This document shows positions 3,242 through 57,084 of a stretch of DNA of 57,084 nucleotides, piece after piece; the stretch's first letter is position 1, and each line of letters starts with the position of its first letter. The translations under genes were made by a program, and so were the position numbers. The notes below the pieces were generated by a model. The model was not told the origin of the DNA and ran no database searches. It saw only the letters and a list, made by a program, of their open reading frames with translations. Source of the stretch: a virus (Duplodnaviria > Caudoviricetes); the IMG/VR virus record IMGVR_UViG_3300040047_000001, positions 1 to 57,084 of that record, one strand, 5' to 3'.

Positions 3242-3283
3242 GAGGGGGACCGCAACCGAGCCAACCCGGTTGCGGTCCTCTTC
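3242..3283 (+). terminator. Stem-loop terminator after the capsid operon
   Basis: GAGGGGGACCGCAACCG / CGGTTGCGGTCCTCTTC, 17-bp stem with two G-U pairs and an 8-nt loop. Confidence 0.7.
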
Positions 3284-3305
3284 TCGAATCTAGGGGGACA
3301 CACTT

Positions 3306-4792: not shown

Positions 4793-6730
4793 ATGGCGAC
4801 CCCTCCGGTATTTGGAGCAGAGTCTGAATCCTCGTTTACGGTCAACACAACGCCGAAGACGCAGGGTCTCTCTGTCACAGCCGGAGACTCCATCACGGTG
4901 GTGGGGTTGGCAGCCAACAACCTCACCACCCTTGGGACGCCAAGCGACAGCGTAAACACATACACCCTCACCAACTCCGTCGTTATCACCGACTTCTGTA
5001 CGGCGTACATCTGGAAGGCGACGGCCGCGACGACGGCGAGCCTGACCATCTCGATTACGCGTGGCGGCACCGGTGGCGACCACTGGGGCTTCAACGCCTT
5101 CAATGACTCGGGCTCAGCAGGATTCGGTAACGGTACTGTAGCCAACTCGACTGGCGCACCGTCGCTTGGGATTACGACAGCAGCCGATAACTCCGCGATC
5201 TATGTTCTGGTTGGCGACTGGAACGCTCTATCGACCTCGCGTACCTGGCTTACGGTCAACTCGATCACCCCGACTTCGGTTAACGGACACGAGAAGACAT
5301 ACGTCCAGGATGGCGCAAGCTACACGATCTATGTTGCCCGGTATCCGGACGCCGGTACGGCCGGAGCGAAGACGGTTGGGCTTTCGGCTCCGGGTGGCCA
5401 GAAGTACAGCATCATCGCGCTGGAGGTCAAGGGCTCCGCAGCCGTAGCCGTTACCGGAACCGATACACCCTCCGGGCTCCGACTCGGCGGAGACTCTCGA
5501 ACAACAGTCACGGCTACGGTCCTGGGGTCCGATACGCCGTCCGGTCTTCGCCTGGGAGCTAACTCCACAACCGCCACAACATCCACAGTACTTGGTTCCG
5601 ACACACCTTCGGGACTTCGCCTGGGTGCCGCCTCTACGGTGACGTCTGGCTCTGCTACGATTGCGGCCGATACTGCGCTCTCCGGCCTCCGCCTGGGGGC
5701 TGACTCGGGGGCCGGAACCACATTCACCGTTGTTGGCTCCGACTCGCCTAGTGGCTTCCGGTTGGGGGCCGACTCAGGCGCTACCGCTGCGATCGGCATC
5801 ACAACGCCAGGAGATGCCCCCTACGGCCTTCGAATGGGCGGGGACACAGGCGCGACTGTAACATACACCGTCGTTGGTGTAGACAGCCCTACAGGGCTTC
5901 GGCCGGGCACATCTACCGCGACGGTGACCTACGCGGTTGTGGCTGCCGACGCCCCGGGTGGACTTCGGATCGGCGCTGACTCGGGCGCCTCCGTCACATT
6001 CACGCTGAACGCTGCTGATGCTCCGAGCGGAGTCCGGCTCGGCGGAGACCCTGGAGCTTCTGCCGGCTCAGCGACTCTGGTTCCAGATACACTGTTCACC
6101 GGCCTGCGTCTGGGCGGAGACTCCGGGGCATCCACAACCTCCGCGCTGATTGCGCTCGACACGCCGAGTTGGCTCCGACTCGCCGACTCAGCCGTCACAA
6201 CGACTTGGACTGTGCTTGCAGGCGACACGCCGACCGGAGTTCGGCTGGGTGGAGATTCCGGTGCCTCTGCTGGTTCGGCAACGCTGGTCCCAGACACGAC
6301 CATCACCGGGCTCCGACTCGGCGGCAGCTCCGCCAGCTCGACAACCGGGGCGGTGCTCGGTTCGGACGCTCCGAGCGGACTCCGGATCGGCTCCTCTCCG
6401 GCGAGCGTCACCTATGCTGTTGTTGCCGGAGATACGCCGAGTGGACTCCGTTTTGGCGGCGCTTCGGCTGTCTCGACCTCCTCAGGTGTGCCGACTCCGG
6501 TTACGGCTGCTGATACGCCCGGGTGGATCCGGCTTGGATTCTCTCCAGCGAGCGTCTCGATCGGTCTGCCGCCGCCACCTACTGTCGACATCATCACCTA
6601 TAACCGCATATCTCGGCTGACACCGAGTGTTTCGATGGGGCATGCCGGTACGGTACTGCAGTCGACCACCGTCGAGACGTCGGTTGTGTCGCCCGACATC
6701 ATCACGACAGTGGAGGTCATACGGATATGA
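4793..6730 (+). CDS. Fibre/whisker-like virion protein with 16 tandem ~23-aa repeats
   Basis: Beta-rich N-domain followed by D-[TSA]-P-x-G-L-R-L-G repeats; located among neck genes. Confidence 0.65.
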   Translation: MATPPVFGAESESSFTVNTTPKTQGLSVTAGDSITVVGLAANNLTTLGTPSDSVNTYTLTNSVVITDFCTAYIWKATAATTASLTISITRGGTGGDHWGFNAFNDSGSAGFGNGTVANSTGAPSLGITTAADNSAIYVLVGDWNALSTSRTWLTVNSITPTSVNGHEKTYVQDGASYTIYVARYPDAGTAGAKTVGLSAPGGQKYSIIALEVKGSAAVAVTGTDTPSGLRLGGDSRTTVTATVLGSDTPSGLRLGANSTTATTSTVLGSDTPSGLRLGAASTVTSGSATIAADTALSGLRLGADSGAGTTFTVVGSDSPSGFRLGADSGATAAIGITTPGDAPYGLRMGGDTGATVTYTVVGVDSPTGLRPGTSTATVTYAVVAADAPGGLRIGADSGASVTFTLNAADAPSGVRLGGDPGASAGSATLVPDTLFTGLRLGGDSGASTTSALIALDTPSWLRLADSAVTTTWTVLAGDTPTGVRLGGDSGASAGSATLVPDTTITGLRLGGSSASSTTGAVLGSDAPSGLRIGSSPASVTYAVVAGDTPSGLRFGGASAVSTSSGVPTPVTAADTPGWIRLGFSPASVSIGLPPPPTVDIITYNRISRLTPSVSMGHAGTVLQSTTVETSVVSPDIITTVEVIRI

Positions 6731-19914: not shown

Positions 19915-19937
19915 AGCATTACTCACCATTGGGAAAG

Positions 19938-19975
19938 GGAATGGCCCCGGTCGCCTCCACCGGGGCCATTCCTTT
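19938..19975 (+). terminator. Terminator ending the late operon
   Basis: GGAATGGCCCCGGT / ACCGGGGCCATTCC perfect 14-bp stem plus TTT. Confidence 0.85.
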
Positions 19976-19991
19976 GCCCTGATTGAATAGG

Positions 19992-20022
19992 CATCCTAGG
20001 AAGCTAGGTAGGTTTGCAGAAA
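19992..20022. repeat. CATCCTAGG-box upstream element, copy 1
   Basis: 31-nt match (2 mismatches) to 22618-22648. Confidence 0.8.
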
Positions 20023-20068
20023 TAATTGCAGAAAACTCCCATCTAGGGCTAGACGCGCCACTGCTGAA

Positions 20069-20117
20069 TGGCGTAGCTTTGTTGTTGTAAGGGGAACAAC
20101 AAAACTAGACAAGGGGA
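20069..20117 (+). promoter_or_regulatory. Early-type promoter and conserved leader P1
   Basis: TGGCG-TAGCTT-N5-TTGTAAGG...GACAAGGGGA (20108-20117). Confidence 0.8.
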
Positions 20118-20124
20118 TATCGAA

Positions 20125-20598
20125 ATGACCGCCAACAAGAACCTCGCCGCTCGGATCGCTCTTACCGCCACCGTCGCAGCAGGAACGTTCTTCATCTCCG
20201 CCTCTCACATCATCAGCGTTGCAGAAGAGGCCGGCAACCACGGCGCAGCAGCCTTCGTCTACCCGGTAGCAATCGACGCAGTCATCCTGGTCTCGGTGCT
20301 GACGCTGGTGGCGAAGACCGGAGTCAACAGGATGGCGAAGTGGTACGCGACGCTTGGGCGGACGTTCGGCTTTGCCGCCACGATCTACGCGAACGTAGCG
20401 GCAAGCGGATTCGAGAGCGTCAACAACGCGGTCATCAACCTCATCCCCGCGCTCGCCTTGATCATCACGATGGAGCTCCTGGTCCACGCCGCCCAGGCGA
20501 CCCCCGCGACCCGCGCACGGAAGGCCACTAAGAAGGCGACCGTCACGCCGATCCGGGGCCGTCGCGGCGCCACCACGAAGCACTCGCGGACCGCGTAA
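20125..20598 (+). CDS. DUF2637/SpdA-like membrane protein
   Basis: Four TM helices, YPVAID motif, basic tail. Confidence 0.7.
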   Translation: MTANKNLAARIALTATVAAGTFFISASHIISVAEEAGNHGAAAFVYPVAIDAVILVSVLTLVAKTGVNRMAKWYATLGRTFGFAATIYANVAASGFESVNNAVINLIPALALIITMELLVHAAQATPATRARKATKKATVTPIRGRRGATTKHSRTA

Positions 20599-20607
20599 CG
20601 GCAGGCC

Positions 20608-20644
20608 GGAGGCCCTTCTGCAGAAAACTGCAGAGGGGCCTTCC
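20608..20644 (+). terminator. Hairpin overlapping the next promoter
   Basis: GGAGGCCCTTCTGCAG-AAAA-CTGCAGAGGGGCCTTCC. Confidence 0.7.
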
Positions 20645-20658
20645 GTTTGGTGAGCAAC

Positions 20659-20704
20659 TGGCGTAGGATGACCTTGAACAACAAACTAGATACCGACAAG
20701 GGGA
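20659..20704 (+). promoter_or_regulatory. Promoter and conserved leader P2
   Basis: TGGCG-TAGGAT...GACAAGGGGA (20695-20704). Confidence 0.78.
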
Positions 20705-20711
20705 GATCGAG

Positions 20712-21452
20712 ATGTTCAAGCACCCGATGTGCGGCGGCAAGCACGAGACCACTTCCGAGGCTCGCGCTTGTGAGCAGATGGCTCGTGAGCAGATGGCCCG
20801 TTCCGATGCTCGTGCAGAGGGCAGCGCGGACCCTGGGATGGAGAGCAACTGGAGCAGCGCGGACCGCGAGCGCGCCCAAGAGCAGCACGAGTACGACTTC
20901 CAGGATCGTGTTATCGGCACCCCGGATGCAGACCGCTGGAGCAGCGCGGACCGCGAGCGCGCCCAGTTCATGGCCGACCGTGACCGGCGTCCGGTCGACC
21001 GTAGCCAGAACCTTCCGTCGGACGTTCAGGCGCAGGCTCGCCGTGACGCGTACGGCCGTCCGGCCCGTACGGCGACCCTTCCGGCCGTCGTCACCGAGGA
21101 TGGGATATACCTCTCCCCGCTCGGCGAAATCTTCAAGGTCGTCTTCAACAAGGCATCCGGCTCCGGCCGTCGCCTCTACGCCAAGAAGCTCGTGATCTGG
21201 GACGACAACGTCCCCTACTCCGCAGACCTCCTCACCCTGCCTGCCCAGACGGCCACCGGCTCGCGCATGGAGTGGGCCTACACGCCCGGAGCGATGCGCG
21301 AGATCCGCCCGGACTGGAAGATGAACGCTGCCGATGCCGAGCGCTTCGGGAAGCTGTACGGCCGGTGCTTCAAGTGCCACCGGGTGCTGACGAAGGAAGA
21401 GAGCATCGCTCGCTCGATGGGCGACACCTGTGCCGGCAAGCAGGGCTTCTAG
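20712..21452 (+). CDS. DUF6011-like zinc-finger protein
   Basis: C-terminal GRCFKCHRVLT..ESIARSMGDTCA. Confidence 0.75.
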   Translation: MFKHPMCGGKHETTSEARACEQMAREQMARSDARAEGSADPGMESNWSSADRERAQEQHEYDFQDRVIGTPDADRWSSADRERAQFMADRDRRPVDRSQNLPSDVQAQARRDAYGRPARTATLPAVVTEDGIYLSPLGEIFKVVFNKASGSGRRLYAKKLVIWDDNVPYSADLLTLPAQTATGSRMEWAYTPGAMREIRPDWKMNAADAERFGKLYGRCFKCHRVLTKEESIARSMGDTCAGKQGF

Positions 21453-21458
21453 CCCACG

Positions 21459-21493
21459 AGGGGCTGCTGCAGAAAAGTTGCAGCAGCCTCTTC
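21459..21493 (+). terminator. Hairpin overlapping the next promoter
   Basis: AGGGGCTGCTGCAG-AAAAG-TTGCAGCAGCCTCT. Confidence 0.65.
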
Positions 21494-21509
21494 CGTTCGG
21501 GACTGGTGC

Positions 21510-21559
21510 TGGCGTAGGGTAACTGGTGTAAGGCTTCTCCAAAAAACTAGACAAGGGGA
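21510..21559 (+). promoter_or_regulatory. Promoter and conserved leader P3
   Basis: TGGCG-TAGGGT-N6-TGTAAGG...GACAAGGGGA (21550-21559). Confidence 0.8.
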
Positions 21560-21564
21560 TCATC

Positions 21565-22554
21565 ATGAACGACCTCGCAGGCACCATGCGCCGGATCTCG
21601 GGCCTGATCGCAAAGGCGGAGAGCACCGAGTTTCCGGAGGAGGCAACCAGCCTCCGCGCGAAGGCTGAAGAGCTGATGGCGCGCTACCGGATCGAAGAGG
21701 AGGAGCTGATCAGCAGCTCCACCGCCGTCACCATCGCGCCGGTTACTCGCAATGTCCCGCTCACGACTCACCAGTCGCAGTTCCGCAACGAGCACGTTTG
21801 GCTCTGGGCCGCTATCGCTCGGCACTGCGGAATCCGGTATCACGCAACCTACCTCGTTGAGGACAATGAGTATGTATACGTGGCAATGGCAGTCGGCTAC
21901 GACATCGATATCCGGCTCGCCGAGATGCTCTACTCCTCCGCTCGCCTAGTCTTTGGCGCGAACCTGGAGCCCGAAGTCAACCCAAATGAGACGGACGCCC
22001 AGAACATCTACCGGCTCCGCTCGGCAGGGATCGACCGCCAGACGATCGCTGAGCGCGTCTTTGGGCGGAAGGGACATGCGGAGGGCCTGAAGGTTGGCCA
22101 GCTCTACCGTGAGGAGTGCGCGCGGCGCGGCGAAGCGCCGAAGGTTACTGGGCGGAACGTCAACGCGAAGACCTACCGTGAGGCATACGCGCAGGAGTTC
22201 GTCACGGCCTTCAGTAGTCGCCTCCGGGTCGCTCGCGACGCAGCCGATGCTGCGGTGGGTGCCCTGGTGTCCGTAGGGCGGGCTGAGCGTGTTGAGGAGG
22301 CGTTCTATACGCTGTTCCCGGCATACCGACCCCTGCCGCAGCCCGAGGTCGCAGAAGACAAGACAGCCAAGCCTCGCAAAGAGCGTGGCATGACGAAAGC
22401 GGATCTGGCCCGGGTGAACCGTATGTACTTCGGCCCGGCTGCCCAGCTCGCTCGCGGCGCTGCCCGGCAGGCTGCCGAGCACGTGGAGCTTGGGCGCCCG
22501 ACTCCTGCGAAGCGCACCGGCTCGGCGCCCCGGGCGGGTGAGCTGGAGAGGTAG
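21565..22554 (+). CDS. DUF2786-domain protein
   Basis: RRISGLIAKAEST-FPEEA...KAEELMARYRI is the DUF2786 signature. Confidence 0.85.
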   Translation: MNDLAGTMRRISGLIAKAESTEFPEEATSLRAKAEELMARYRIEEEELISSSTAVTIAPVTRNVPLTTHQSQFRNEHVWLWAAIARHCGIRYHATYLVEDNEYVYVAMAVGYDIDIRLAEMLYSSARLVFGANLEPEVNPNETDAQNIYRLRSAGIDRQTIAERVFGRKGHAEGLKVGQLYREECARRGEAPKVTGRNVNAKTYREAYAQEFVTAFSSRLRVARDAADAAVGALVSVGRAERVEEAFYTLFPAYRPLPQPEVAEDKTAKPRKERGMTKADLARVNRMYFGPAAQLARGAARQAAEHVELGRPTPAKRTGSAPRAGELER

Positions 22555-22568
22555 GATAGAGCTGCAGG

Positions 22569-22602
22569 AGGGCCCACCAGGTCAACCCCGGTGGGCCTTT
22601 TT
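22569..22602 (+). terminator. Intrinsic terminator
   Basis: GGCCCACC / GGTGGGCC plus TTTTT. Confidence 0.8.
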
Positions 22603-22617
22603 GCTGGTCATAACAAC

Positions 22618-22648
22618 CATCCTAGGAGGCTAGGTAGGTTTGCAAAAA
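22618..22648. repeat. CATCCTAGG-box upstream element, copy 2
   Basis: CATCCTAGGAGGCTAGGTAGGTTTGCAAAAA. Confidence 0.8.
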
Positions 22649-22692
22649 ATCTTGAAACTTTTTCTGCAGAAAGTCCCCGAAAGGCCCCATCC

Positions 22693-22739
22693 TGGCGTAG
22701 GATGGTTCTTGTAAGGCGATAGCGAAAACGACAAGGGGA
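22693..22739 (+). promoter_or_regulatory. Promoter and conserved leader P4
   Basis: TGGCG-TAGGAT-N5-TTGTAAGG...GACAAGGGGA (22730-22739). Confidence 0.8.
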
Positions 22740-22740
22740 G

Positions 22741-23328
22741 ATGGTTAAGATGGCGAAGTCGACACGGTGCTCGATCTGCGAGAAGCGCCCGGTTGGTAAC
22801 GAGGCGAAGATGGGCGGGCACGCGGACTACTGCAACGCCTGCTTCGAAGAGGCGAGCTGGGAGAACACCCACACCGACCAGGGCCACGAGACCTGCCCGA
22901 CGCTCGAAGAGATCAACGACCCGAGTGCGGAGTGGACGAGCGAGAACGACAAGCAGGACGCTCTCGACGTTCGCGCCGAGATGGCCGACTGCTGGATCTG
23001 CAACCCGGAGCTCAACGAAGCGCAGAAGGAGTACCGCGAGCGTCAGGGTTCCAGCCGGGTCGGGATGACGATCCACGTATCGATCCGCGCGGCTGGCGTC
23101 ACGAAGGCCGAAGAGACCGCAGCGCAGCTGGACGAGAGCTACGAAGCCAAGATCTCGAAGCCGACCAAGCGCAACGGCCAGACCACGAAGCTGACCTTCG
23201 TCTCCACCATCCAGACCTTCATCCTCTCCTGGGACGCTCGGGGCCGTTTCGTTACCGGCTCGGTGACGGAGAACGGCAAGACCCGCAAGGTCCGGAACGT
23301 CTCCGAGGCGCTTCGCCTCGCGCGGTAG
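22741..23328 (+). CDS. Cys-rich hypothetical protein (start may be ATG 22750)
   Basis: CSIC, CNAC, CWIC motifs; follows the conserved leader. Confidence 0.8.
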   Translation: MVKMAKSTRCSICEKRPVGNEAKMGGHADYCNACFEEASWENTHTDQGHETCPTLEEINDPSAEWTSENDKQDALDVRAEMADCWICNPELNEAQKEYRERQGSSRVGMTIHVSIRAAGVTKAEETAAQLDESYEAKISKPTKRNGQTTKLTFVSTIQTFILSWDARGRFVTGSVTENGKTRKVRNVSEALRLAR

Positions 23329-23343
23329 GACCCACGATCTCCA

Positions 23344-23377
23344 GGCCCGCTCTCCGGAGCGGGCCAAGATCGTTTTT
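23344..23377 (+). terminator. Stem-loop terminator
   Basis: GGCCCGCTC-TCCG-GAGCGGGCC followed by a T-run. Confidence 0.65.
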
Positions 23378-23390
23378 CGATCTTCTGCAG

Positions 23391-23431
23391 CATCCTAGCC
23401 TCCTAGGATGCTTTGCAAAAATGTCAAGATT
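23391..23431. repeat. CATCCTAG inverted-repeat box plus TGCAAAAATGTCAAGATT
   Basis: CATCCTAG-CCTC-CTAGGATG; inverted copy of the 22618 box. Confidence 0.75.
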
Positions 23432-23480
23432 GTTGCGGGTTTTCAGCAGAAAACTGCGCATATGGAGGTAGGGTTGTGGT

Positions 23481-24101
23481 GTGACGAAATACGAGATCCG
23501 ATGCCCCGGCTCCTTCCGCTCTGGAGTAGCCTTCCTGGATCTGGAGACCGTGAAAGTTCCGGCTCCTGAGGATTACCGGATGCCCTCCGGCGAGGCGCTG
23601 CGGAACCGTTGGTCTGTCGCGCTAGCAGGCGTGGCCCGCGACGGCTCGATCTCGATTGTGGACCCTGCTGGGGATGAAGCGCTGGGGCTGGAGGAGCTGG
23701 CTGAACTGCTCGCGGGAGCAGAGTCCGTCGCCTACGGTGCGACGCGCGAGTTTGACGAGATGATCTGCCGGGGCCGCTTTACGAACGCCCGGCGCGCTCA
23801 CCTTCCAGTTCCGACCTTCCCCGCAGTTCCGGGAGCAGAGGCGCTGTCCTGGAGGAACGTCGGTGTGGCGAAGTCTTATGGCGACGAGATCCGTGGTGAC
23901 GACATCCTCTCGCGAGAGGTGCCGCGCGGACTCTACGATGGCCGTAGGGACGCCGTTATGGTTCATCTGCTCCGCGACGTTGCGGAGCTGATACTGCGCG
24001 ACGGCGAGCCAGACGAAGCTTGCCGCGATTGGTGCGAGTGGGTCCTGGTGAACTTCGACTTCGCGCTCCTGGCGCTCCAACGGGTCGGCGCAGCATCCTA
24101 G
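23481..24101 (+). CDS. Putative RNase H-fold 3'-5' exonuclease-like protein
   Basis: AFLDLET (Exo I-like), REFD and HLLRDV (Exo III-like); GTG 6 nt after a TAGGGT -10. Confidence 0.5.
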   Translation: MTKYEIRCPGSFRSGVAFLDLETVKVPAPEDYRMPSGEALRNRWSVALAGVARDGSISIVDPAGDEALGLEELAELLAGAESVAYGATREFDEMICRGRFTNARRAHLPVPTFPAVPGAEALSWRNVGVAKSYGDEIRGDDILSREVPRGLYDGRRDAVMVHLLRDVAELILRDGEPDEACRDWCEWVLVNFDFALLALQRVGAAS

Positions 24102-24127
24102 GATGATCTGTAAAAAGTGTCAAGATT
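24094..24127. repeat. CATCCTAGGATG palindrome plus TGTAAAAAGTGTCAAGATT
   Basis: Perfect 12-bp palindrome; downstream segment shared with 23414-23431. Confidence 0.75.
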
Positions 24128-24159
24128 TATGCGCACTAGCGCCCCGAAACACCAGTTGG

Positions 24160-24202
24160 TGGCGTAGAGTAATTGTTGTAAGGCGAGGCGACGACAAGGG
24201 GA
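24160..24202 (+). promoter_or_regulatory. Promoter and conserved leader P6
   Basis: TGGCG-TAGAGT-N5-TTGTAAGG...GACAAGGGGA (24193-24202). Confidence 0.8.
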
Positions 24203-24209
24203 GCGCGAG

Positions 24210-24452
24210 ATGCCGAAGATCGAGATGCTGAACGACGAAGGCAACGTGACCGAAGTTGTGTTGGATGTTCATCGTTGCGTCGGCGATTCGACCGAATGCG
24301 AGCCGGACGGCGCGATGTGCGAAGATTGCGGCCGTTATGCGACGGCTGAAACTCCAGTCTATGTTTGGACCACGCGCCTGCTTGCCAGACTGACCTACTT
24401 CGCCTGCAGTCGCTGCCTCGCGGCCGACGCCTATGCCCGCCTGATCAACTAG
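24210..24452 (+). CDS. Small zinc-finger protein
   Basis: CEDC...CSRC; conserved leader. Confidence 0.75.
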   Translation: MPKIEMLNDEGNVTEVVLDVHRCVGDSTECEPDGAMCEDCGRYATAETPVYVWTTRLLARLTYFACSRCLAADAYARLIN

Positions 24453-24468
24453 ACAAGGGGAGCGCGAG

Positions 24469-25593
24469 ATGACCACCACCGTTCGCAAGGGGGCCGGACG
24501 TCCGGCTGCGACCGAAAAATCCAACCGGCACGCGCAGCGCACCCCGCTTCCGCCGAAGGCCGGAGCCGTTCAGGATGCGAAAGACGTCATCACCGAAGTC
24601 GTCGAAAAGAACCAGACGATCGGCGCCGAGATGGCGAGCCGGAAGCCTCAGGCGAAGCGCAACGCGCAGGATCGGCGCCTGGCGGCTGGTGCGATTCGCG
24701 AGGCGCCCGTGGAGGAGCTGCCGAGCGCGAAATACGGGATGATGACGGTCGTGGAGCTTCGGAAGATCGCGGGCGGGCTGCTGGTGAAGGGCGCTCGCTC
24801 GATGAAGAAGGGTGATCTGCTCACCGCCATCTTAGAGGCAGAGACTGCAGCCGCCAAGGCGCAGACGCCGGAACGCGTAGTGCGGGCAGAGGCGAAGGTG
24901 ACCCAGGCACTCACGAAGGACACGAAGGCTGCTGCGATCGATGCCGCGTTCGACGCCTTCCACGCGTTCGGCTCACCGCAGGACGCGGAAGTGACGAAGG
25001 AGCTGGCACAGGACACCACCTCGAAGAGCGGCGCGAAGGCGCAGACTTTCCTCGCCGAGGCGGCCCGGCTCGGCTGGGACTCCAGCGGCTACGACATCCG
25101 TCCCGGGGACCGCGCCAGCTTGACCGTGAAGCGGGGAAGCGAGTCGATCGATATCGAGTGGCTCGCCGGAGTCTTCCAGGGGGACACGTGCTACTACCAC
25201 CACGTCGGGCGGACCGCCATCAAGCTCCGGAACGCCAGCGCAGCGAAGATGCGGATGGCCATCCCGCCCGCTCAAGCTGACCAGGAGGCCCAGAAAGTGA
25301 CTGCACACAAGTCGGTCCGCCCAAAAGCAGGAAAGGCGCCTAGCACCATGCGTAGCCTGCCGTTCACCGAAGCCTCGCTGGACCAGGAGGTGCTGGACGC
25401 ACTCTACGGGAAGGAGATCACCTGGACCAACCGCATCTCGGGTGAGCCGCAGACTGAGCGCGTGCCTGGGCTCGCCCGGAAGCCGAGCCATGCACCCCGC
25501 ATCAGCGATGGGCCGGACGGCCGCGTGATCAACTTCGTAGGCTCTGCTGGCTTCACCACCGTACTGCTGTCCCAGATCACACGAGTTCGCTAG
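24469..25593 (+). CDS. Hypothetical protein with Rho-N/HeH-like nucleic-acid-binding motif
   Basis: MTVVELRKIA...ARSMKKGDLLTAIL; leader GACAAGGGGAGCGCGAGATG identical to that of the previous gene. Confidence 0.75.
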   Translation: MTTTVRKGAGRPAATEKSNRHAQRTPLPPKAGAVQDAKDVITEVVEKNQTIGAEMASRKPQAKRNAQDRRLAAGAIREAPVEELPSAKYGMMTVVELRKIAGGLLVKGARSMKKGDLLTAILEAETAAAKAQTPERVVRAEAKVTQALTKDTKAAAIDAAFDAFHAFGSPQDAEVTKELAQDTTSKSGAKAQTFLAEAARLGWDSSGYDIRPGDRASLTVKRGSESIDIEWLAGVFQGDTCYYHHVGRTAIKLRNASAAKMRMAIPPAQADQEAQKVTAHKSVRPKAGKAPSTMRSLPFTEASLDQEVLDALYGKEITWTNRISGEPQTERVPGLARKPSHAPRISDGPDGRVINFVGSAGFTTVLLSQITRVR

Positions 25594-25605
25594 GGAGAGG
25601 CGAAA

Positions 25606-26115
25606 GTGAAACGTGTAATAGCCATCATTGCAGCTCTCATCCTGCTGCCTATGGCTGCAGCGGCAGACTGCAAGAAGGACGGGCCGGGTACCCCCAGCTA
25701 CAACGCACGGCACCACATCGACCCGTCGCAGCACGCCATGCCAAACCCGGACCCGAGGCCGGAGCGGCGCAAATTGGGCCGTCCGCCGACCGGGAAGTCA
25801 GTTACGTTCTGGGTAACGGCAGACAAGTCTATGGGCAGCCTGATCGTGACCTCGAAGGTCGGCGACGGTGAGTACCAGACGCGCCACGTGACGGGCCACG
25901 ACGCCTGGGGGACGTTCGCTACTGTAGGAACGCCAGTCTCCCTGTTGGCAGCCCCCGACGAGAAGCCGAAGGCAGATGGGACCTTCAAGCACGGTCGGAT
26001 AACCATCCGCATCACGCGCGAGCCTGCCAGCCAGGCAGAAGGCGGAGCCATCATCTGCCAGGACGACAACGCCGCATCCCTTACCGGCGGAGCGGAGTGC
26101 GCCGGTACGGTCTAG
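25606..26115 (+). CDS. Secreted or lipoprotein-like protein
   Basis: Signal peptide MKRVIAIIAALILLPMAAAADC; C-terminal Cys pair. Confidence 0.7.
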   Translation: MKRVIAIIAALILLPMAAAADCKKDGPGTPSYNARHHIDPSQHAMPNPDPRPERRKLGRPPTGKSVTFWVTADKSMGSLIVTSKVGDGEYQTRHVTGHDAWGTFATVGTPVSLLAAPDEKPKADGTFKHGRITIRITREPASQAEGGAIICQDDNAASLTGGAECAGTV

Positions 26116-26164
26116 CAAATTGCTGAAGATTGTGGTGCTCCGGGGTAGCGCCCGGAGCACCACC

Positions 26165-26209
26165 TGGAGTAACGTCTTTGTTGTAAGGCAAATTCAGACG
26201 ACAAGGGGA
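26165..26209 (+). promoter_or_regulatory. Promoter and conserved leader P7
   Basis: TGGAG-TAACGT-N5-TTGTAAGG...GACAAGGGGA (26200-26209). Confidence 0.75.
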
Positions 26210-26216
26210 GCTCAAG

Positions 26217-26549
26217 ATGATCGCCAAGGTCTCACGTCGCACCGCCTCCGGTGAAGACAAGCGCGGCAACTCGAAGGATCGCGCAGCCCGGAAGAACTGG
26301 ATGCTGAAGACGTGGGGCGACGGCGAGAAGTGCGACTGCGTTCACTGCGGCGAGCTCCTCAGCTATGAGACTGTGCAGGCCGATCGCATCGCTCCCGGTG
26401 GCACCTACCGCCGATCGAACGTTCAGCCCTCGTGCGCTCGCTGCAACCGCCGTCGCTCCAACAACACCGCATGGATCAGCCCGTTGATGGCCCGCCTCGC
26501 GAAGTCGGCGAACGCGACGGCCGCAGATCTCAAGGAGCAGGGGAAGTAA
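26217..26549 (+). CDS. HNH endonuclease
   Basis: CVHC...ADRIAPGGTY..SNVQPSCARCN. Confidence 0.85.
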   Translation: MIAKVSRRTASGEDKRGNSKDRAARKNWMLKTWGDGEKCDCVHCGELLSYETVQADRIAPGGTYRRSNVQPSCARCNRRRSNNTAWISPLMARLAKSANATAADLKEQGK

Positions 26550-30207: not shown

Positions 30208-30243
30208 GGGTGGGGAGTCGGACGGACGACCGACTCCCCACCC
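30208..30243 (+). terminator. Perfect 14-bp stem-loop (terminator or RNA-stabilising hairpin)
   Basis: GGGTGGGGAGTCGG / CCGACTCCCCACCC; no U-tract. Confidence 0.6.
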
Positions 30244-30253
30244 ATCCCCTCGC

Positions 30254-30322
30254 GCAGAGCAGAGGTTGCCGGTGGCTAATTCAACTTCCCCTTGTCGACG
30301 CTACCGGCAGCCCCTACCCTGC
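30254..30322 (+). ncRNA. Candidate antisense hairpin RNA 1 (loop complementary to the GACAAGGGGA leaders)
   Basis: Stem 30261-30276 / 30300-30315 with two G-U pairs, 23-nt loop TAATTCAACTTCCCCTTGTCGAC. Confidence 0.55.
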
Positions 30323-51583: not shown

Positions 51584-51620
51584 TGGAGCACCAGCTAATC
51601 AAGACCGACAAGGGGATCGA

Positions 51621-51905
51621 ATGCCGGATGCCGTGCTGCCCGATGATGGTGATTCGCCCGCTCGGGCAGAAGTCGATGCCGAGGTGGCAGAGTCGATCCG
51701 CGTGGAGATCACCACTCCGCTCGCTTCGATCGTTCTGGAGGGGTCTGGTGTCACTGCTGATTCGGCTTACTGGCTATGGCGTCGAGTCGCTCGTGAGGCG
51801 ATCGCGCTAGCTCCACAGCCGGACAGTCTGCCGCGTATGGAAGCCAACGCGGCAGGCTTCATCATCGAGCATGCCGACCAGCTACCCGGAGGCTTCGCAA
51901 CATGA
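51621..51905 (+). CDS. Hypothetical protein preceded by the conserved leader
   Basis: CCGACAAGGGGATCGA-ATG; stop overlaps the next ATG. Confidence 0.55.
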   Translation: MPDAVLPDDGDSPARAEVDAEVAESIRVEITTPLASIVLEGSGVTADSAYWLWRRVAREAIALAPQPDSLPRMEANAAGFIIEHADQLPGGFAT

Positions 51906-52072
51906 GCAGGAAGCAGCACGGCGTTCCGAACCATAAGCGCTGCAAGCTATGCGGTCGTACTCGTGGTCTCGTGATCTACTCCAACAGCCCGAAGACGCTC
52001 GGTGTCATGTTCGCGCCTGGCATCGCGCTCTGTCCGCATTGCGACTTCGTGGGGACAGGTATTCGGTCATGA
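51902..52072 (+). CDS. 56-aa zinc-ribbon protein
   Basis: CKLC...CPHC; GGAGG SD; ATGA overlaps at both ends; not in the ORF track. Confidence 0.65.
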   Translation: MSRKQHGVPNHKRCKLCGRTRGLVIYSNSPKTLGVMFAPGIALCPHCDFVGTGIRS

Positions 52073-53667
52073 CTCTGACGGCCGTCACCGAGCTGGAGTT
52101 GGAGCGCGAGTGGCGAGACGCGCTTGGCTGGCGGCCGCATGCGATCCAACGCGAGATCCTGGAAGACCGGACGCGCTTCCAGGTACTGGCCGCCGGACGG
52201 CGCTTCGGGAAGTCGCAGACGGGCGGGCACAAGCTGCTCCCGAAAGCGTTCTCTGCCTATGCCGAGAAGCCGACACTGGACGCGAACGGACAGCAGCGCC
52301 GGTACTGGATCGTCGGCCCGGAGTACTCCGATGCTGAGAAGGAGTTCCGGGTACTGTACAACGGCCTGAAGCGTCTGGACGTTCCGTTCGATCGCCCAGG
52401 GACCTACAACAACCCCAACAATGGCGATATGCACATCTCGCTGTGGGATGGCGCGTTCATGGTGGATGCGCTTTCCGCGAAGTACCCGGAGACGCTGGTT
52501 GGTGAAGGACTCTCGGGTGTGGTGCTTTCTGAGGCTGCCAAGCTCAAGGAGTCGGCGTGGACGAAGTACATTCGCCCGACGCTCGCCGACTTCAAGGGGT
52601 GGATGTATGCGGGCTCCACACCCGAAGGCCGGAACTGGTTCTACCGGGCTTGGGAGGCGGGGCAGGATCCACTTCGCCGGGAGTGGAAGAGCTGGCGCGC
52701 TCCCGCGTGGGCCAACCCGTACGTGTACCGCGAGATGGGTGTAGCCGGTGCGGAAGCCGACGCAGCAGTCCGACTGCTCCAGACACTCGTCCGGAAGCGG
52801 ATGCTGCCAGAGCGGTTGCCGATCGACTCCGGCGCTCGCTGGCTCATTACCGATGAGCAATGGGCCAAAGCGACCGACAAGACCTGGGAGAAGGTCGGCA
52901 GGGCGCTCGGACTGGACCCCGAGATCGTGGCGCTCGCGCTCGATCTGTCGGAAGAAGTCTTCAACCAAGAAGAGGCAGCCCTCTTCAATGAGTTCGTGGG
53001 TCGCGTCTTCAAGGAGTTCGATGAAGAGATCCATGTAGCCGACCTGAAGTACGATCCAGCTTGGAAGACGTACGCCGCGCTGGACTATGGATTCACCAAC
53101 CCATTCGTCTGGCTGCTGATCCAGGTCGATCCGTTCAACACCAACATCCGGATCCTGGATGAGTACTATGAGCGGGGGCGGACGACTCGCGAGGCAGCAG
53201 CCGAGATTCAGAGTCGCGGACTCGCACCAACCAGCATCTTGGAGTTCTACCCGGATCCCGCTGAGCCAGACCGCTCCCGCGAGCTGTCGGGCCTGCTTCA
53301 GCTTCGGCCTGCCGGCGGAACGGGCGGATTGATCGCGGATCGGCTAGAGTGGATCCGGCGAAAGCTGAAGCCCGACCCCAAGATAGCACACCTCAACACG
53401 AGTCATGAGGAATGGGTCCCACAGCTACAGATCAACAGACGTTGCAAGGAGACCATTCGTGAGTTCAACGTCTACCGCTACCCGAAGACGGCGGAAGAGG
53501 CAGCAGCCCGGAACCAGGAAGCGCCAGAAGCTCCGCTCAAGAAGGACGACCACACTCCGGAAGCGCTCGGGCGATTCATGATCGGACACTTTGGCTCGCC
53601 GTGGGTGGATCTGTCTCCGCCGCGCCAGAGCCGGGCACGGGTCGGTCGGCGAGGGGCTGCAAGGTAG
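52069..53667 (+). CDS. terL: Terminase large subunit
   Basis: PHAIQ, AGRRFGKS, VVLSEAA, STPEG, LDYG, KDDHTPEAL. Confidence 0.95.
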   Translation: MTLTAVTELELEREWRDALGWRPHAIQREILEDRTRFQVLAAGRRFGKSQTGGHKLLPKAFSAYAEKPTLDANGQQRRYWIVGPEYSDAEKEFRVLYNGLKRLDVPFDRPGTYNNPNNGDMHISLWDGAFMVDALSAKYPETLVGEGLSGVVLSEAAKLKESAWTKYIRPTLADFKGWMYAGSTPEGRNWFYRAWEAGQDPLRREWKSWRAPAWANPYVYREMGVAGAEADAAVRLLQTLVRKRMLPERLPIDSGARWLITDEQWAKATDKTWEKVGRALGLDPEIVALALDLSEEVFNQEEAALFNEFVGRVFKEFDEEIHVADLKYDPAWKTYAALDYGFTNPFVWLLIQVDPFNTNIRILDEYYERGRTTREAAAEIQSRGLAPTSILEFYPDPAEPDRSRELSGLLQLRPAGGTGGLIADRLEWIRRKLKPDPKIAHLNTSHEEWVPQLQINRRCKETIREFNVYRYPKTAEEAAARNQEAPEAPLKKDDHTPEALGRFMIGHFGSPWVDLSPPRQSRARVGRRGAAR

Positions 53668-53708
53668 GCTTACCCCTGCGATCGCGAACCATCTTCGAAG
53701 GAGCCTCT

Positions 53709-54059
53709 ATGTCCGTTCAGGCAACAACCGTTCTGGCGAGCTCTGCCCGGACGACTTCGGGTAACTCCACCACCGTGACTGTGCCCGACTGGTCGCCAGC
53801 CGATCCGCGCTCGGTTTCCGTCTACCAGAACGTCACCGCCCAGTCCGGCACCACGCCGACACTCGACATGCAGGTGCAGTGGTCGCCGGACGGCACCACG
53901 TGGTACTCCGCGTCCGATACCTTCACACAGGTGGCTGCCGCGACGGGCACGGCCGTCAAGCAGTTCGCCGTCAAGGCGCCGTACTGGCGGCTGAGCTACA
54001 CGATCGCCGGTACCACCCCCAGCTACACCTTCGACGTCAAGGCCGTGTACCAGGCTTAG
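53709..54059 (+). CDS. Small beta-rich protein, probably virion-associated
   Basis: AAGGAG SD; QWSPDGTTWY...APYWRLSY; between terL and portal. Confidence 0.7.
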   Translation: MSVQATTVLASSARTTSGNSTTVTVPDWSPADPRSVSVYQNVTAQSGTTPTLDMQVQWSPDGTTWYSASDTFTQVAAATGTAVKQFAVKAPYWRLSYTIAGTTPSYTFDVKAVYQA

Positions 54060-54070
54060 ACTCCAAAGAC

Positions 54071-54146
54071 GACTCCCTCGCCCACGGTTGACCACCGCAC
54101 TTCATCCCCTTGTCGGCGGGCAGGTCCTGGGGCGAGGGAGTCTTTT
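54071..54146 (+). ncRNA. Candidate antisense hairpin RNA 2 / terminator with anti-leader loop
   Basis: 13-bp outer stem GACTCCCTCGCCC / GGGCGAGGGAGTC plus TTTT; inner GACC/GGTC and CCGC/GCGG; apical loop ACTTCATCCCCTTGTCG. Confidence 0.55.
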
Positions 54147-54171
54147 GCGCTAGCGACTACCGGGAGAGGCT

Positions 54172-55785
54172 ATGCCCACCACCAATAAGTACAACAGCGT
54201 CGTGGTCGCGCTCGGGCGTGGGCTTCCATCCTGGGTGACTGATACCGATGACCAGATCCGTGTTGGGGCCTATGACGCCTATGACGACATGTACAAGAAC
54301 GTTCCTGACACCTTCAAGGTGGTTATGCGGGGGACTGACGATCGACCCGTCTATGTGCCGTCTGCCGCAAAGATCATCGAGGCCACCAACCGATACCTCG
54401 GCAAGGACTGGAACTGGAGCGTCGCGGCTGTCGGCCCAGAGGCCCAGGTTGCTGAAGCTGGGCGGGCTGAAGTCGAGTTGGCTATCGGGAACCTCGCCGT
54501 CCGCGAAGAGCTGCTGAGCAAGTTCTATTCGCTCAAGCGCAATATGCTGAAGCGGGGTGATGCGTTTCTCCACATCACAGCGAACCTCGGGCGAGCTCCG
54601 GGGAAGCGCCTCGCCATTACCGAGCTGTCGGCCCGTTCGGTATTCTGGATCACCAGCGCGCTCTCCGACGAAGAGAAGCTGGGCGTCTACATTGTGGACC
54701 TGATCTACGCGGACGACGGCACGACTCAGATCGCGCGACGTATGGAGTACCGCTATAACGAGTCGGGCGGAGTCGACGCGCGGCTGACGTTCTGGGAGAC
54801 CAACGCCTGGGACGATCGTTGGACTGGGCACCCCGCGCTCAAGCCTGTCGCGGTACCGACGTCCTACAAGGTGCCGGAGCTGACATCGTTGCTGAGTGGC
54901 TATACGCTGCCACCGAGCGTCGTCACGCTTCCGGTGTACCACTTCCGGAACCGCCGTGAAGGCGGAGAGCCATACGGCACCTCGCAACTCGCCGGAGTCG
55001 AGACCCTCATCGCCGCCATCAACCAGACGGTCTCCGATGAAGACATCACGCTTGCGCTGCAGGGGCTTGGTGTCTATATGACGGACTCTGCTCGTCCCGT
55101 CAACGACGCAGGCGAAGAGGTGGACTGGGAGATCTCGCCTGGCGTGGTGCTAGAGATGAAGCTGGGAAGCAAGCTTGCCCGGGTCGAAGGTGTGTCGAGT
55201 GTTGTCCCGTTCCAGGCCCACCTCAAGTACCTCGAAGACTCGATGGACCGCTCGGTGGGGCTCTCCTCCACAGCGATCGGCGAGGTAGACGTCTCGGTGG
55301 CAGCGAGCGGTGTAGCGCTTCGGCTCGATATGGCGCCGATCCTCGCCCAGAACGAGGAGAAAGAAGCCGAACTGCTGGATCGGCTGGACCAGTTGATGTT
55401 TGATCTCCTGACGCAGTGGCTGCCGCTGGAGCAGATCGTTCAGGTTCAGCCAGGAATCAAGATCACCAATAGCTTCTCCGATCCGCTCCCGATCGACAGG
55501 GCCGGCATCATCGCCGAAGTCGTCCAGCTCGTGACGGCCAGCTTGATGTCGCGAGAGTTCGCCATCGCCTACCTGACGGCGAAGCTCGGTTACCAATTCC
55601 CGAGCGATATGCTGGCGCGGATCCTGAATGAGGAGGACACGGTGGCGTCGCGGCTCGCGGCGGAGGCGACCGGTGGTGCGATCCCCACCGACGACGGAGC
55701 CGGGAACATCGCCGTCACCCCGCCCGGAGTTGAGGCGGCTGCGACTGTGCCTGGTCCGGCTCCGGTGGCGTCGGCGACGGCGTAA
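54172..55785 (+). CDS. Portal protein
   Basis: 537 aa after terL; PVYHFRN...YGTSQL and ASGVALRL motifs of SPP1 gp6-like portals. Confidence 0.92.
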   Translation: MPTTNKYNSVVVALGRGLPSWVTDTDDQIRVGAYDAYDDMYKNVPDTFKVVMRGTDDRPVYVPSAAKIIEATNRYLGKDWNWSVAAVGPEAQVAEAGRAEVELAIGNLAVREELLSKFYSLKRNMLKRGDAFLHITANLGRAPGKRLAITELSARSVFWITSALSDEEKLGVYIVDLIYADDGTTQIARRMEYRYNESGGVDARLTFWETNAWDDRWTGHPALKPVAVPTSYKVPELTSLLSGYTLPPSVVTLPVYHFRNRREGGEPYGTSQLAGVETLIAAINQTVSDEDITLALQGLGVYMTDSARPVNDAGEEVDWEISPGVVLEMKLGSKLARVEGVSSVVPFQAHLKYLEDSMDRSVGLSSTAIGEVDVSVAASGVALRLDMAPILAQNEEKEAELLDRLDQLMFDLLTQWLPLEQIVQVQPGIKITNSFSDPLPIDRAGIIAEVVQLVTASLMSREFAIAYLTAKLGYQFPSDMLARILNEEDTVASRLAAEATGGAIPTDDGAGNIAVTPPGVEAAATVPGPAPVASATA

Positions 55786-55788
55786 GCC

Positions 55789-57084
55789 ATGCCGGCTGTG
55801 GCGCCTGCTCCACAGGAGTGGAGGATCCAACAGGCTATCGCTATGCAGCGAGCCGACAAGCAGGTCCTGGCACAGCTTAAAGCGAGCCAGACCGCGCTGA
55901 ACGCTCAGCTGAAGGCGCTTGTCGCGCGGCCTGGTTTCTCCAACTCGATCCGGGAAGCACAGCTCCGGCTCGCGAAGCGCGAGATCCAGACCGAGATGGC
56001 GAACCTGTTCCGGAAACTCGGCGACATTACCTCGGCGATGCGGCTGGAAGCGGCTGCCCGTGTCCTAAAGGTCAATGAGCAGCTCGACGCCTTCAAGTTG
56101 CTCGGTGCTGGGCTCGCCGACGGGGCGGACGTCGCCCGGGCAATTGCTGATGCTGAGTTGGATGCCGCCAGGAGTGGCCTAGACCGGATGATTGCGCGTG
56201 TTCAGGGGGCTAGCTACAATTCCCTGTCGCAGCGCGTCTACACATCCGCTAGCGGCCTGAACGGGCCGATCTCGACGCTCGTGAACAACGCGCTCGCGGC
56301 TGGGGTGTCGGCTCGGGAGTTTGCGAGCCTTGCGAAGGACTTCATCAACCCGCTCACGCCGGGTGGTGTCCGGTATGCGTCGTATCGGCTCGCCAGGACT
56401 GAGATCAACAACGCCGCGCACGCGGTAGCAGTCGACTCGGTTCAGGACAAGCCTTGGGTGAGCGGGATGCGGTGGCACCTCTCCGGCTCGCACCCGCGCG
56501 TCGACATCTGCAACTCGCTGGCCGGGGGCGGACCGAAGCGCGACGGCGTGTATCCAAAGACGGAGGTCCCTGCCAAGCCGCACCCGCATTGCTTCTGTTA
56601 TGTGACGCCGGAGACGGACGACGAAGAGGAATTCCTCAACAACTTGGTAGCCGGGCACTATGACGACTACTTGGAGAAGTACCGCAACATCAAGCCGGGC
56701 GAGATCATCACCAGCCGTCGCTTCGGAGGGGCCACGCAGCCCTCTCAGAAGGCCCCTACGCCTGTGCGCACGCTCAAGTCGGTACCCGCGACGTCTAGAG
56801 CTAGCGCAGAGCCTGTACGTCAAGTACAGAGGCCGTTCGATGATCGCGTGGCAGCTGCCGCGAAGGAAGCTGAAGCGCTCGCGAAGGCTCCAGTCTCCAA
56901 GTCGATCCGACAGGGAGTGCCCTACCACCTTCCGCTGGACCAGGCCCGTGCACTCGGTGAGTATGGTGGCTTCCGCTACAACGAGATCAATGGTGTGCTT
57001 CGCGGCACCCGAACGGCCCTGCGACCGGAGCCGGGTGATGCGTCGGTACCGTCGATTGTGCGACGGATAGATGCGGCGATGAAG
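55789..57084 (+). CDS. MuF-like minor head protein fused to an ADP-ribosyltransferase (546 aa once joined to 135-479)
   Basis: Translated by hand (missing from the ORF track because there is no stop before the window end): RLARTEINNA, WHLSGSH...DIC, PHPHCFCY, Pro/Ala linker, then the ART domain. Confidence 0.9.
   Translation, partial: MPAVAPAPQEWRIQQAIAMQRADKQVLAQLKASQTALNAQLKALVARPGFSNSIREAQLRLAKREIQTEMANLFRKLGDITSAMRLEAAARVLKVNEQLDAFKLLGAGLADGADVARAIADAELDAARSGLDRMIARVQGASYNSLSQRVYTSASGLNGPISTLVNNALAAGVSAREFASLAKDFINPLTPGGVRYASYRLARTEINNAAHAVAVDSVQDKPWVSGMRWHLSGSHPRVDICNSLAGGGPKRDGVYPKTEVPAKPHPHCFCYVTPETDDEEEFLNNLVAGHYDDYLEKYRNIKPGEIITSRRFGGATQPSQKAPTPVRTLKSVPATSRASAEPVRQVQRPFDDRVAAAAKEAEALAKAPVSKSIRQGVPYHLPLDQARALGEYGGFRYNEINGVLRGTRTALRPEPGDASVPSIVRRIDAAMK
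56951..57084. repeat. Terminal direct overlap, copy 2
   Basis: Matches 1-134 with one mismatch. Confidence 0.95.

Follow-up and report, generated by a model that had tools for sequence, protein, structure and literature searches.

The hairpin that lies between terL and the portal gene of this phage has the base of a terminator and a loop that repeats, in reverse complement, a ribosome-binding word found in front of several other genes. The question is whether it serves simply as a terminator or other intercistronic element, or whether the RNA that carries it acts on the leaders to which its loop is complementary.

The window, by which we mean the whole stretch of DNA analysed, is an entire IMG/VR virus record of 57,084 bp (61% G+C, estimated completeness 88%), and its source is an uncultivated actinobacterial phage. 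The convincing genes, as judged by codon-position G+C and PHROG matches, are all on the + strand and are arranged as follows:

55.8 kb, across the record ends, to 19.9 kb: head, tail and lysis genes
20.0-30.15 kb: block of short transcription units
30.3-51.6 kb: replication genes (exonuclease, Sak4-like protein, DnaE-like polymerase, ThyX-like protein, primase, dCTP deaminase)
ATG 51621, + strand: 94-aa gene in front of terL
51949-53667, + strand: terL
53709-54059, + strand: small conserved gene (116 aa) between terL and portal, GC3 0.85, with homologues in other contigs
54172-55785, + strand: portal gene, its ATG backed by alignment with seven homologues

We take the 20-30 kb block to be 'early' from its promoters and its position. 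Cultured relatives of the phage are distant: its portal protein is at most 40% identical to those of Patience-like, Gordonia and Microbacterium phages, and its DnaE is about 50% identical to those of Nocardia phage P3.1, its best cultured match, and of Cluster D phages. A megablast search of 51900-56000 against cultured phages gave no match, and no helicase relatives were found in an IMG/VR scan. The 116-aa protein has weak matches to DUF6385 and phrog_9522; homologues are encoded in contigs L009 and L008 (50-53% identity), with further ones in L074/L091 and L083, and a tblastn search with it gave no match.

Structure of the hairpin and its place at the portal junction

The elements of the hairpin, referred to below as Hairpin 2, are these:

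54071-54146, + strand: Hairpin 2, with a 13-bp outer stem, inner helices, a 17-nt apical loop and TTTT (from arm complementarity and RNAfold)
54104-54116, + strand: putative anti-leader segment ATCCCCTTGTCGG of the apical loop, which matches 51605-51617 in reverse complement at every position

Its outer arms, GACTCCCTCGCCC (54071-54083) and GGGCGAGGGAGTC (54130-54142), are complementary at all 13 positions, 10 of them G-C pairs, with 46 nt between them and TTTT directly after (54143-54146). RNAfold gives the + strand a minimum free energy of -47.8 kcal/mol (z -4.68), a stability reached by none of 200 shuffles (mean -32.3, sd 3.3); the minus strand of the same region folds more weakly (z -2.92). 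In the predicted structure the outer stem is kept, the inserted 46 nt form the inner helices GACC/GGUC and CCGC/GCGG, and ACUUCAUCCCCUUGUCG is left essentially unpaired, so that the perfect outer stem followed by TTTT and the further folding of the insert, both claimed by the first-pass annotation, are borne out. No Rfam family is matched at the gathering score, and hence no homology to a described RNA such as 6C, c4, RsaE or cuckoo is found by that measure; relaxing to E<=1 brings only sub-threshold microRNA-precursor-like hairpins. The region holds no tRNA that we could find, and no promoter motif was found upstream of the hairpin. We also considered whether the loop might hide the ribosome site of the portal gene in cis, and rejected this, as only some 4-5 bases are complementary by eye and the minimum-energy fold leaves that site free.

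With an intrinsic terminator the hairpin shares a GC-rich stem directly before a T-run, placed shortly after a stop codon (that of the 116-aa gene lies 11 nt upstream), though the U-tract is short at four. It differs in its 46-nt insert and open 17-nt loop, where a compact hairpin with a short loop would be expected, and in having an essential gene just downstream. A terminator consensus scan (loops of 3-8) does not call it; the other terminators of the genome have 4-8-nt loops, and those of the early region carry 3-5 T. The portal ATG stands 26 nt past the T-run, a distance into which a promoter will not fit, so transcription must pass the hairpin, which can then be at most a leaky terminator or a processing or stabilising point. 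A clean terminator is therefore unlikely, and it is doubtful that the hairpin forms the stable 3' end of a late mRNA, as had been proposed earlier, since much read-through is required.

Conservation of the loop at the same locus, which the first-pass annotation had offered as a check of its reading, is not found among the remote relatives compared, in which the junction hairpins differ in sequence. By its portal, L009 is the nearest relative; it carries an unrelated, longer hairpin there (-80.4 kcal/mol, z -4.61) with CCUCCC in the apical loop, the complement of which was not found in its 5.6-kb contig. In L083 the hairpin is short and its loop unrelated, and the junction is without a hairpin in L008/L087 and L074/L091. 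Five lineages thus have the small gene, of which the window and L009 have long hairpins, L083 a short one and two none. The small gene itself is missing from most portal relatives, and a metagenome scan with an alignment of the small protein gave nine loci, among which only L074 and L075 include the junction with the portal gene, both without a hairpin. The junction hairpin is dispensable in relatives, and its variation there suggests that the position favours a hairpin while its sequence is free.

The start-associated tag and its mirror copies

The word to which the loop is complementary, (C)GACAAGGGGAK, lies 3-9 nt upstream of eight + strand genes (starts at 20125, 20712, 21565, 22741/22750, 24210, 24469, 26217 and 51621). 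Seven copies are in the multi-promoter block at 20-26 kb and one is at the gene preceding terL:

20108-20118, + strand: leader tag GACAAGGGGAT, 6 nt before ATG 20125, downstream of promoter-like TGGCGTAG
20695-20705, + strand: leader tag GACAAGGGGAG, before ATG 20712
21550-21560, + strand: leader tag GACAAGGGGAT, before ATG 21565
22730-22740, + strand: leader tag GACAAGGGGAG, before ATG 22741 (which abuts the tag) or 22750
24193-24203, + strand: leader tag GACAAGGGGAG, before ATG 24210
24452-24462, + strand: leader tag GACAAGGGGAG, before ATG 24469, promoter motif absent upstream
26200-26210, + strand: leader tag GACAAGGGGAG, before ATG 26217
51605-51617, + strand: leader tag CCGACAAGGGGAT, 3 nt before ATG 51621 of the 94-aa gene preceding terL

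GACAAGGGGAK has 12 matches with at most one mismatch on both strands together, vs. 0.82 expected, and GAC or CGAC on the 5' side of AAGGGGA is invariant in all eight tag copies, a conservation that exceeds the Shine-Dalgarno core. Five of the eight copies are preceded by promoter-like TGGCGTAG, which contains a -10-like TANNNT, and the copy at 26200 by a variant of it, TGGAGTAACGT; four of these six promoter-preceded tags also have TTGTAAGG upstream. The motif TGGCRTAG matches 11 times (2.6 expected), seven times on the + strand, and six of these seven are at 20.0-29.6 kb. Being over-represented, placed before starts and found behind promoter-like elements, the tag behaves like the start-associated sequences (SAS) of Cluster K and Cluster EF actinophages; it is an SAS-like word, and by sequence it is not a member of the Cluster K/EF SAS. 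The early region also contains palindromes of the CTGCAGAAAACTGCAG type, operator-like in appearance.

The reverse complement of the tag is itself over-represented. On the + strand CCCCTTGTC is found at 30288 and 54106 only, and the core 11-mer TCCCCTTGTCG has two + strand copies where a first-order Markov model expects 0.011 (probability of two or more about 6e-5). Both copies fall within the roughly 9% of the genome to which no + strand gene call extends, and each occupies the apical loop of a strong intergenic hairpin, one being Hairpin 2 and the other lying at the start of the replication block:

30208-30243, + strand: simple but strong hairpin immediately upstream of Hairpin 1, its 17-nt arms 94% complementary, T-run absent
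30264-30312, + strand: Hairpin 1, with a 12-13-bp stem and a 23-nt loop containing TCCCCTTGTCG at 30287-30297

Hairpin 1 is at the end of the early region, 35 nt upstream of GTG 30348, and its region folds with -77 kcal/mol (z -4.88). When all words of 11 nt are ranked by their same-strand reverse-complement partners, only 22 + strand positions in the 57 kb have three or more, and the loops of Hairpins 1 and 2 lead with five each. Complement-only and reverse-only versions of the motif, used as control words, have no exact copies. The orientation is divided between eight forward copies at starts and two reversed copies in loops. Both the structure of Hairpin 2 and the excess of mirror words are solid. 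That the two hairpins are copies of one element was considered and rejected, their stems being unrelated; they look instead like separate solutions.

Segment ATCCCCTTGTCGG, besides being complementary over 13 nt to the 51605 leader, is complementary over 11-12 nt to seven further sites, with 11 nt at 20108 and 21550; these are the lengths that had been given earlier for the three leaders, and all are exact reverse complements. The complementarity spans the lineage-specific CGAC flank as well as the purine core.

Pairing energies were computed for the apical loops only against start regions, with opening energies added. Opening costs 2-3 kcal/mol for the two loops, about 3 for that of Hairpin 2. 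For seven of the tagged start regions the Hairpin 2 loop reaches net energies of -16.1 (at 51621), -15.2, -15.2, -14.0, -13.7, -11.8 and -11.6 kcal/mol, and for the eighth (24469) -3.3; 58 other start regions have a mean of 0.0 (sd 5.3) and a best value of -10.1 kcal/mol. As this energy ranking follows from the complementarity by construction, it speaks for feasibility only. The best complement of Hairpin 2 is 51605-51617, where a perfect 13-nt duplex of -23.6 kcal/mol is followed by further pairs over the start codon. Hairpin 2 matches all three GGGGAT leaders perfectly, and Hairpin 1, which behaves like it, prefers the GGGGAG leaders, with 11 bp plus one G-U pair, in keeping with the earlier suggestion that the two hairpins divide these leader subtypes between them.

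Between Hairpin 2 and its target at 51605-51617, which is 2.5 kb upstream on its strand, no terminator-like hairpin was called, and leader and hairpin are probably on one transcript. Leaders of the early block are complementary to Hairpin 2, but its best target is not one of them and belongs to its own operon. This best target is a late gene, a poor fit to a pure 'early shut-off'.

A reading of the motif as merely the ribosome-binding site of the minus-strand ORF 53670-54095 had been named as what would overturn the anti-leader interpretation; a 14-codon ORF on that strand was considered here as well. Such a reading has in its favour that the minus strand reads GACAAGGGGAT-GAA-GTG, with the spacing of the 51607 leader, and that the GTG 3 nt past the tag opens the 14-codon frame. 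We consider it extremely improbable. G+C by codon position is 0.81/0.60/0.51 in the minus-strand ORF, opposite to the coding pattern of the genome (0.64/0.48/0.75, mean of 25 genes of at least 200 aa), and 0.51/0.59/0.85 in the + strand gene 53709-54059 that it overlaps, a conserved gene with homologues in four other contigs; the minus-strand ORF has no Pfam match, and with a GC3 of 0.51 vs. 0.85 we regard it as spurious. The convincing genes being all on the + strand, the minus strand showing no promoter motif, and the corresponding minus-strand frame at Hairpin 1 having two codons only also count against this reading.

Comparable layouts in other phages

Exact copies of the window's own tag or mirror are absent from ten records of portal relatives, which have only three single matches with one mismatch, and no repeated tag was found in the first 50 kb of the 66.6-kb genome of Nocardia phage P3.1. 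A search of IMG/VR with the 14-mer leader ACTAGACAAGGGGA brought up 59 loci, with a single match each, which were set aside as chance matches; three of them had only blastn matches of 19-22 nt at the searched word, and there were no tblastx matches.

The layout, as distinct from the word, is found again in two IMG/VR records, G006 (61 kb) and G007 (42 kb), with portal proteins about 40% identical to that of the window. Their tag is (G)AGAGAGGGAAY: GAGAGGGAAC has five and four exact copies, respectively (17 and 16 with at most one mismatch), and in G006 seven of eight AGAGGGAA sites are 2-6 nt upstream of an ATG or GTG. A single exact mirror, GTTCCCTCTC, is present in each genome, the two intergenic sites being homologous, and it occupies the apical loop of a hairpin that a conserved GAACGG/CCGUUC helix closes. 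The hairpin is preceded by an element resembling the other promoter-like motifs of those genomes and followed by a 15-bp terminator hairpin that shows a compensatory change. A third record, L118, is identical to G007, so that this layout is represented by only two independent sequences.

The closest known words of this kind are the SAS of Cluster K mycobacteriophages (Pope et al. 2011, PMC3203893). In common with them, as far as the available text of that paper goes, the window has an asymmetric word of 11-13 nt that precedes starts by a few nt and is conserved over more than the Shine-Dalgarno core, is found mostly at non-structural genes and often stands behind a conserved upstream element containing a promoter. 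Rare reversed copies away from gene starts are also shared, the copy in subcluster K1 being in the apical loop of a conserved hairpin. The sequence of the word differs, and so does the number of reversed copies, which is two in the window, with one located in the packaging operon. In the same available text Pope et al. report the single reversed SAS of subcluster K1 and suggest that the SAS may bind host or phage 'RNA or protein' (PMC3203893). Microbacterium phages of Cluster EF are likewise described as carrying SAS in what is available of PMC7302621, and papers of 2024 and 2025 still term the role of SAS unknown or needing verification in their accessible parts. Among the SAS literature that we located, to the extent of its accessible text, neither SAS in general nor the reversed copy is given a role, and an anti-SAS RNA is nowhere described; PMC12699233 does not once use the words opposite, reverse, hairpin or antisense.

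In the Cluster K1 phage Anaya the reversed SAS lies in the 385-bp gap between gp96 and gp97, where the transcribed strand reads GGCCUCCUAUCCC in the apical loop of a compound hairpin. The region of this hairpin gives 150 BLAST matches, all of them in Cluster K phages at the same right-end position. Twelve Cluster K representatives were aligned for the whole region and the hairpin was folded in 11 sequences (10 representatives and Adephagia), which yields 16 consensus pairs, two with compensatory changes. The loop CCTCCTATCCC is present in 6 of the 12 representatives and in Adephagia, the mirror loop sequence of Adephagia and Anaya being CCUCCUAUCCC. Amohnition has only a degenerate mirror copy, one base shorter, and in Marshawn, Yuna, Keshu, SirPhilip and Pixie (5 of the 12) the loop is unrelated or deleted and the mirror absent. 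Forward SAS number 15-20 in each of the 12 genomes. An ORF is annotated at the element in some records, and indels of one and two bases among close relatives argue against it. The Adephagia element is in the gap between gp92 and gp93, where, in the available portion of PMC11373665, 'late transcription appears to initiate'; the mirror loop would accordingly be about 100 nt into the late transcript, while the SAS mark non-structural genes of the right arm. In the Adephagia record this stretch is at about 58,560-58,720 and includes a conserved TAGACT element; the published RNA-seq of Adephagia covers 30 min and 210 min (PMC11373665). In the Cluster EF phage AnnaSerena ten forward SAS and no reversed copies were found, allowing up to two mismatches. 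A mirror is not obligatory for tag-bearing phages.

Tag and mirror differ together across unrelated lineages, namely the window, G006/G007 and Cluster K1. That an apical loop holds the mirror of the resident tag in three lineages, with a different word in each, speaks for presentation at the RNA level and for a link between tag and mirror. The analogous layouts in the two other phage lineages lend indirect support to the anti-leader reading of the first-pass annotation.

Possible modes of action

As the open loop is the exact mirror of the ribosome-binding tag at eight genes, a late RNA may switch those genes off. Hairpin 2 would be a structured element, a GC-rich compound hairpin plus U4, within the late transcript for packaging and head proteins, acting as a leaky terminator at the most, or else marking a place where the RNA is processed or stabilised, and its apical loop would display the complement of the tag unpaired. 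Either the whole late mRNA or a 3' fragment with the hairpin at its end could be the RNA that bears it; in the eight tagged mRNAs this RNA would pair over 11-13 bp with the Shine-Dalgarno region, stopping ribosome entry and perhaps provoking cleavage; Hairpin 1 would act likewise from the start of the next transcription block. We infer the accumulation of such an RNA, its pairing and its repressive effect from the layout described above. An anti-leader RNA function is plausible on the sequence evidence, and for the more definite proposal, that the loop regulates the tagged mRNAs from the late transcript, our support is tentative, though we take it as the working interpretation.

Structured phage RNAs with loops that pair with the ribosome-site region of a phage mRNA are known from phages P1 and P7, where c4 antisense RNA has a single immunity target. 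Hairpin 2 differs from c4 in having no Rfam match, in matching eight leaders vs. that one target, and in the host group. The base-pairing sRNAs with C-rich loops known from both high-GC and low-GC Gram-positive bacteria, e.g. 6C/B11 (PMC6486639, as far as its available text goes), have in common with it C-rich apical loops, G-rich ribosome-site targets in several mRNAs and no known chaperone; unlike these, Hairpin 2 matches no Rfam family, is part of an mRNA, lacks a separate promoter and would target the phage's own genes. In the icaR mRNA of Staphylococcus aureus, according to the accessible part of PMC3868564, a UCCCC-containing element of the 3'UTR pairs with the Shine-Dalgarno sequence of the 5'UTR, blocks initiation and makes a substrate for RNase III. 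Hairpin 2 and the 51605 leader could act in the same manner within one transcript, though Hairpin 2 is between genes of an operon rather than in a terminal 3'UTR and matches eight leaders vs. one.

Since its best partner is 2.5 kb upstream and probably on the same transcript, such an interaction in cis is a live variant. In its strict form the loop would pair only with the 51605-51617 leader, throttling the 94-aa gene, and the matches to early leaders would be side effects of the shared tag. No leader matches over a greater length or more strongly than that at 51605 (13 nt, duplex -23.6 and net -16.1 kcal/mol), the two sites share a strand and no terminator-like hairpin was called in the interval, and the available text on icaR provides the precedent of a UCCCCUG in the 3'UTR pairing with the mRNA's own Shine-Dalgarno (PMC3868564). 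Hairpin 1, however, shares the core yet is far from the packaging operon, and the mirrors of Cluster K1 and of G006/G007 are outside the operons of their targets, so that we find an exclusively cis action improbable. It is also unlikely, to a lesser degree, that Hairpin 2 is no more than a common intercistronic structure whose loop complementarity has no function. It would then serve as a leaky intrinsic terminator, for RNase processing or to stabilise a 3' end, and might be the terminator belonging to a small-gene cassette that was inserted. A perfect GC-rich stem and T4 shortly after a stop codon would fit this well, the early-region terminators having similarly short T-runs, and relatives with an unrelated hairpin or none at the junction, as well as the absence of the small gene from most of them, make the pattern expected of structure-only elements. 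Against it are the probability of about 6e-5 for two + strand copies of the 11-mer, even before intergenic hairpin loops are demanded, the 46-nt insert with its 17-nt open loop, unlike the 4-8-nt loops of the genome's other terminators, and the recurrence of the layout in two other lineages.

Two further explanations place the action elsewhere than in pairing between RNAs. A phage regulator might bind the 11-bp word as double-stranded DNA, as at the stoperators of Cluster A phages; the two reversed copies would then be additional binding sites and the hairpins incidental. The word is asymmetric, intergenic and repeated, and at six sites just downstream of promoter-like elements; the early region has its operator-like palindromes; and Pope et al., in the available text, leave 'RNA or protein' open for SAS (PMC3203893). 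The fixed distance of 3-9 nt to the starts and the purine-rich core point instead to the mRNA level, and a DNA site gives no reason for the position in apical loops in three lineages, one of them with compensatory stem changes, or for the orientation of eight copies forward at starts vs. two reversed in loops; we consider it quite unlikely. Sites of the nut/boxB type are RNA elements that serve phage antiterminators, and the loops of Hairpins 1 and 2 could be of this sort, for reading through the adjoining stems into middle and late genes. Such a role would suit a pair of hairpins that share a loop core and are placed at two operon junctions, each adjoining or forming a terminator-like stem that needs read-through, but it leaves the exact mirror of a ribosome-site tag unexplained, and no antiterminator homologue is found among the 66 proteins scanned against PHROGs, which makes it a very remote prospect.

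Taken with the anti-leader function proposed here for Hairpin 2, the parallels in other lineages raise the broader idea that private tags together with mirror hairpin loops are, in actinobacteriophages generally, a translation timer encoded by the phage, in which anti-tag loops on middle or late transcripts silence tagged early mRNAs in trans. Hairpins 1 and 2 would exemplify it in the window; in Cluster K1 the loop would belong to the leader of the late transcript, and in G006/G007 to a small unit running from promoter to terminator. We rate this generalisation as rather unlikely on present comparisons. If true, it would supply the 'phage-encoded RNA' partner that is missing from the SAS puzzle of 2011, and would set an RNA-based early shut-off beside the protein-based ones of other phages. 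A mirror loop on a later transcript is in any case a concrete hypothesis, in which one RNA loop may repress a regulon defined by a private ribosome-site tag. The Cluster K1 phages grow on Mycobacterium smegmatis, are engineerable and have been studied by RNA-seq, so that the parallel layout in them can be tested now.

Hairpins and non-coding loci in related phages

At the junction between the small gene and the portal gene, where the window has its hairpin 54071-54146, contig L009, which holds the closest portal relative, also carries a hairpin; the two are unrelated, and the apical loop of the L009 hairpin contains CCUCCC. In the distant relatives G006 and G007 there is a candidate small RNA running from promoter to terminator, and the loop of its first hairpin mirrors these phages' own start tag, (G)AGAGAGGGAAY.

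L009 2845-2945: junction hairpin, ~95 nt, -80 kcal/mol
L117 (G006) 6001-6145 and L116 (G007) 3154-3295: candidate small RNA, ~125 nt
L119 34683-35067 (Anaya 59682-60066) and L131 1448-1879 (Adephagia 58447-58878): non-coding region conserved among Cluster K phages

Within the Cluster K region lie the terminator of the upstream gene and a TTGRCG-N11-TAGACT element that is conserved, together with two covarying hairpins and with the anti-SAS hairpin, whose loop in Anaya and Adephagia holds a reversed copy of the start-associated sequence. GenBank records differ over this region: some have an ORF annotated there (Angelica gp92, Validus gp103, Ageofdapage gp98) and others have none.

Unit layout and palindromes of the early block

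The early block of the window is built of repeated units with a common order of elements, and a 20-mer, GACAAGGGGAGCGCGAGATG, occurs identically at 24193 and 24452.

19915-26219: units reading, 5' to 3', terminator hairpin, promoter-like TGGCGTAG(G/A)NT, often TTGTAAGG, tag, ATG
~20015-20040, 20618-20633, 21467-21483, 22664-22675, 23445-23460: CTGCAG-AAAA-CTGCAG-type palindromes
~19990-20025, 22615-22650, 23385-23425: repeat block CATCCTAGGARGCTAGGTAGGTTTGCARAAA, ~30 bp, in three early intergenic regions

Terminator stems and promoters contain or adjoin the palindromes, which look like operators for an early regulator. The third copy of the repeat block is rearranged.

Head-region genes and record ends

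The window record is an assembly, either permuted or circular, whose ends fall within a MuF-like head gene that spans the end of the record and resumes at its start; the C-terminal end of this gene gives weak matches to ADP-ribosyltransferase domains.

55789-57084 and 3-479: MuF-like head gene
3242-3283: terminator-like hairpin (17-nt arms, 88% complementary), 3' of the gene that comes after the one for the major head protein
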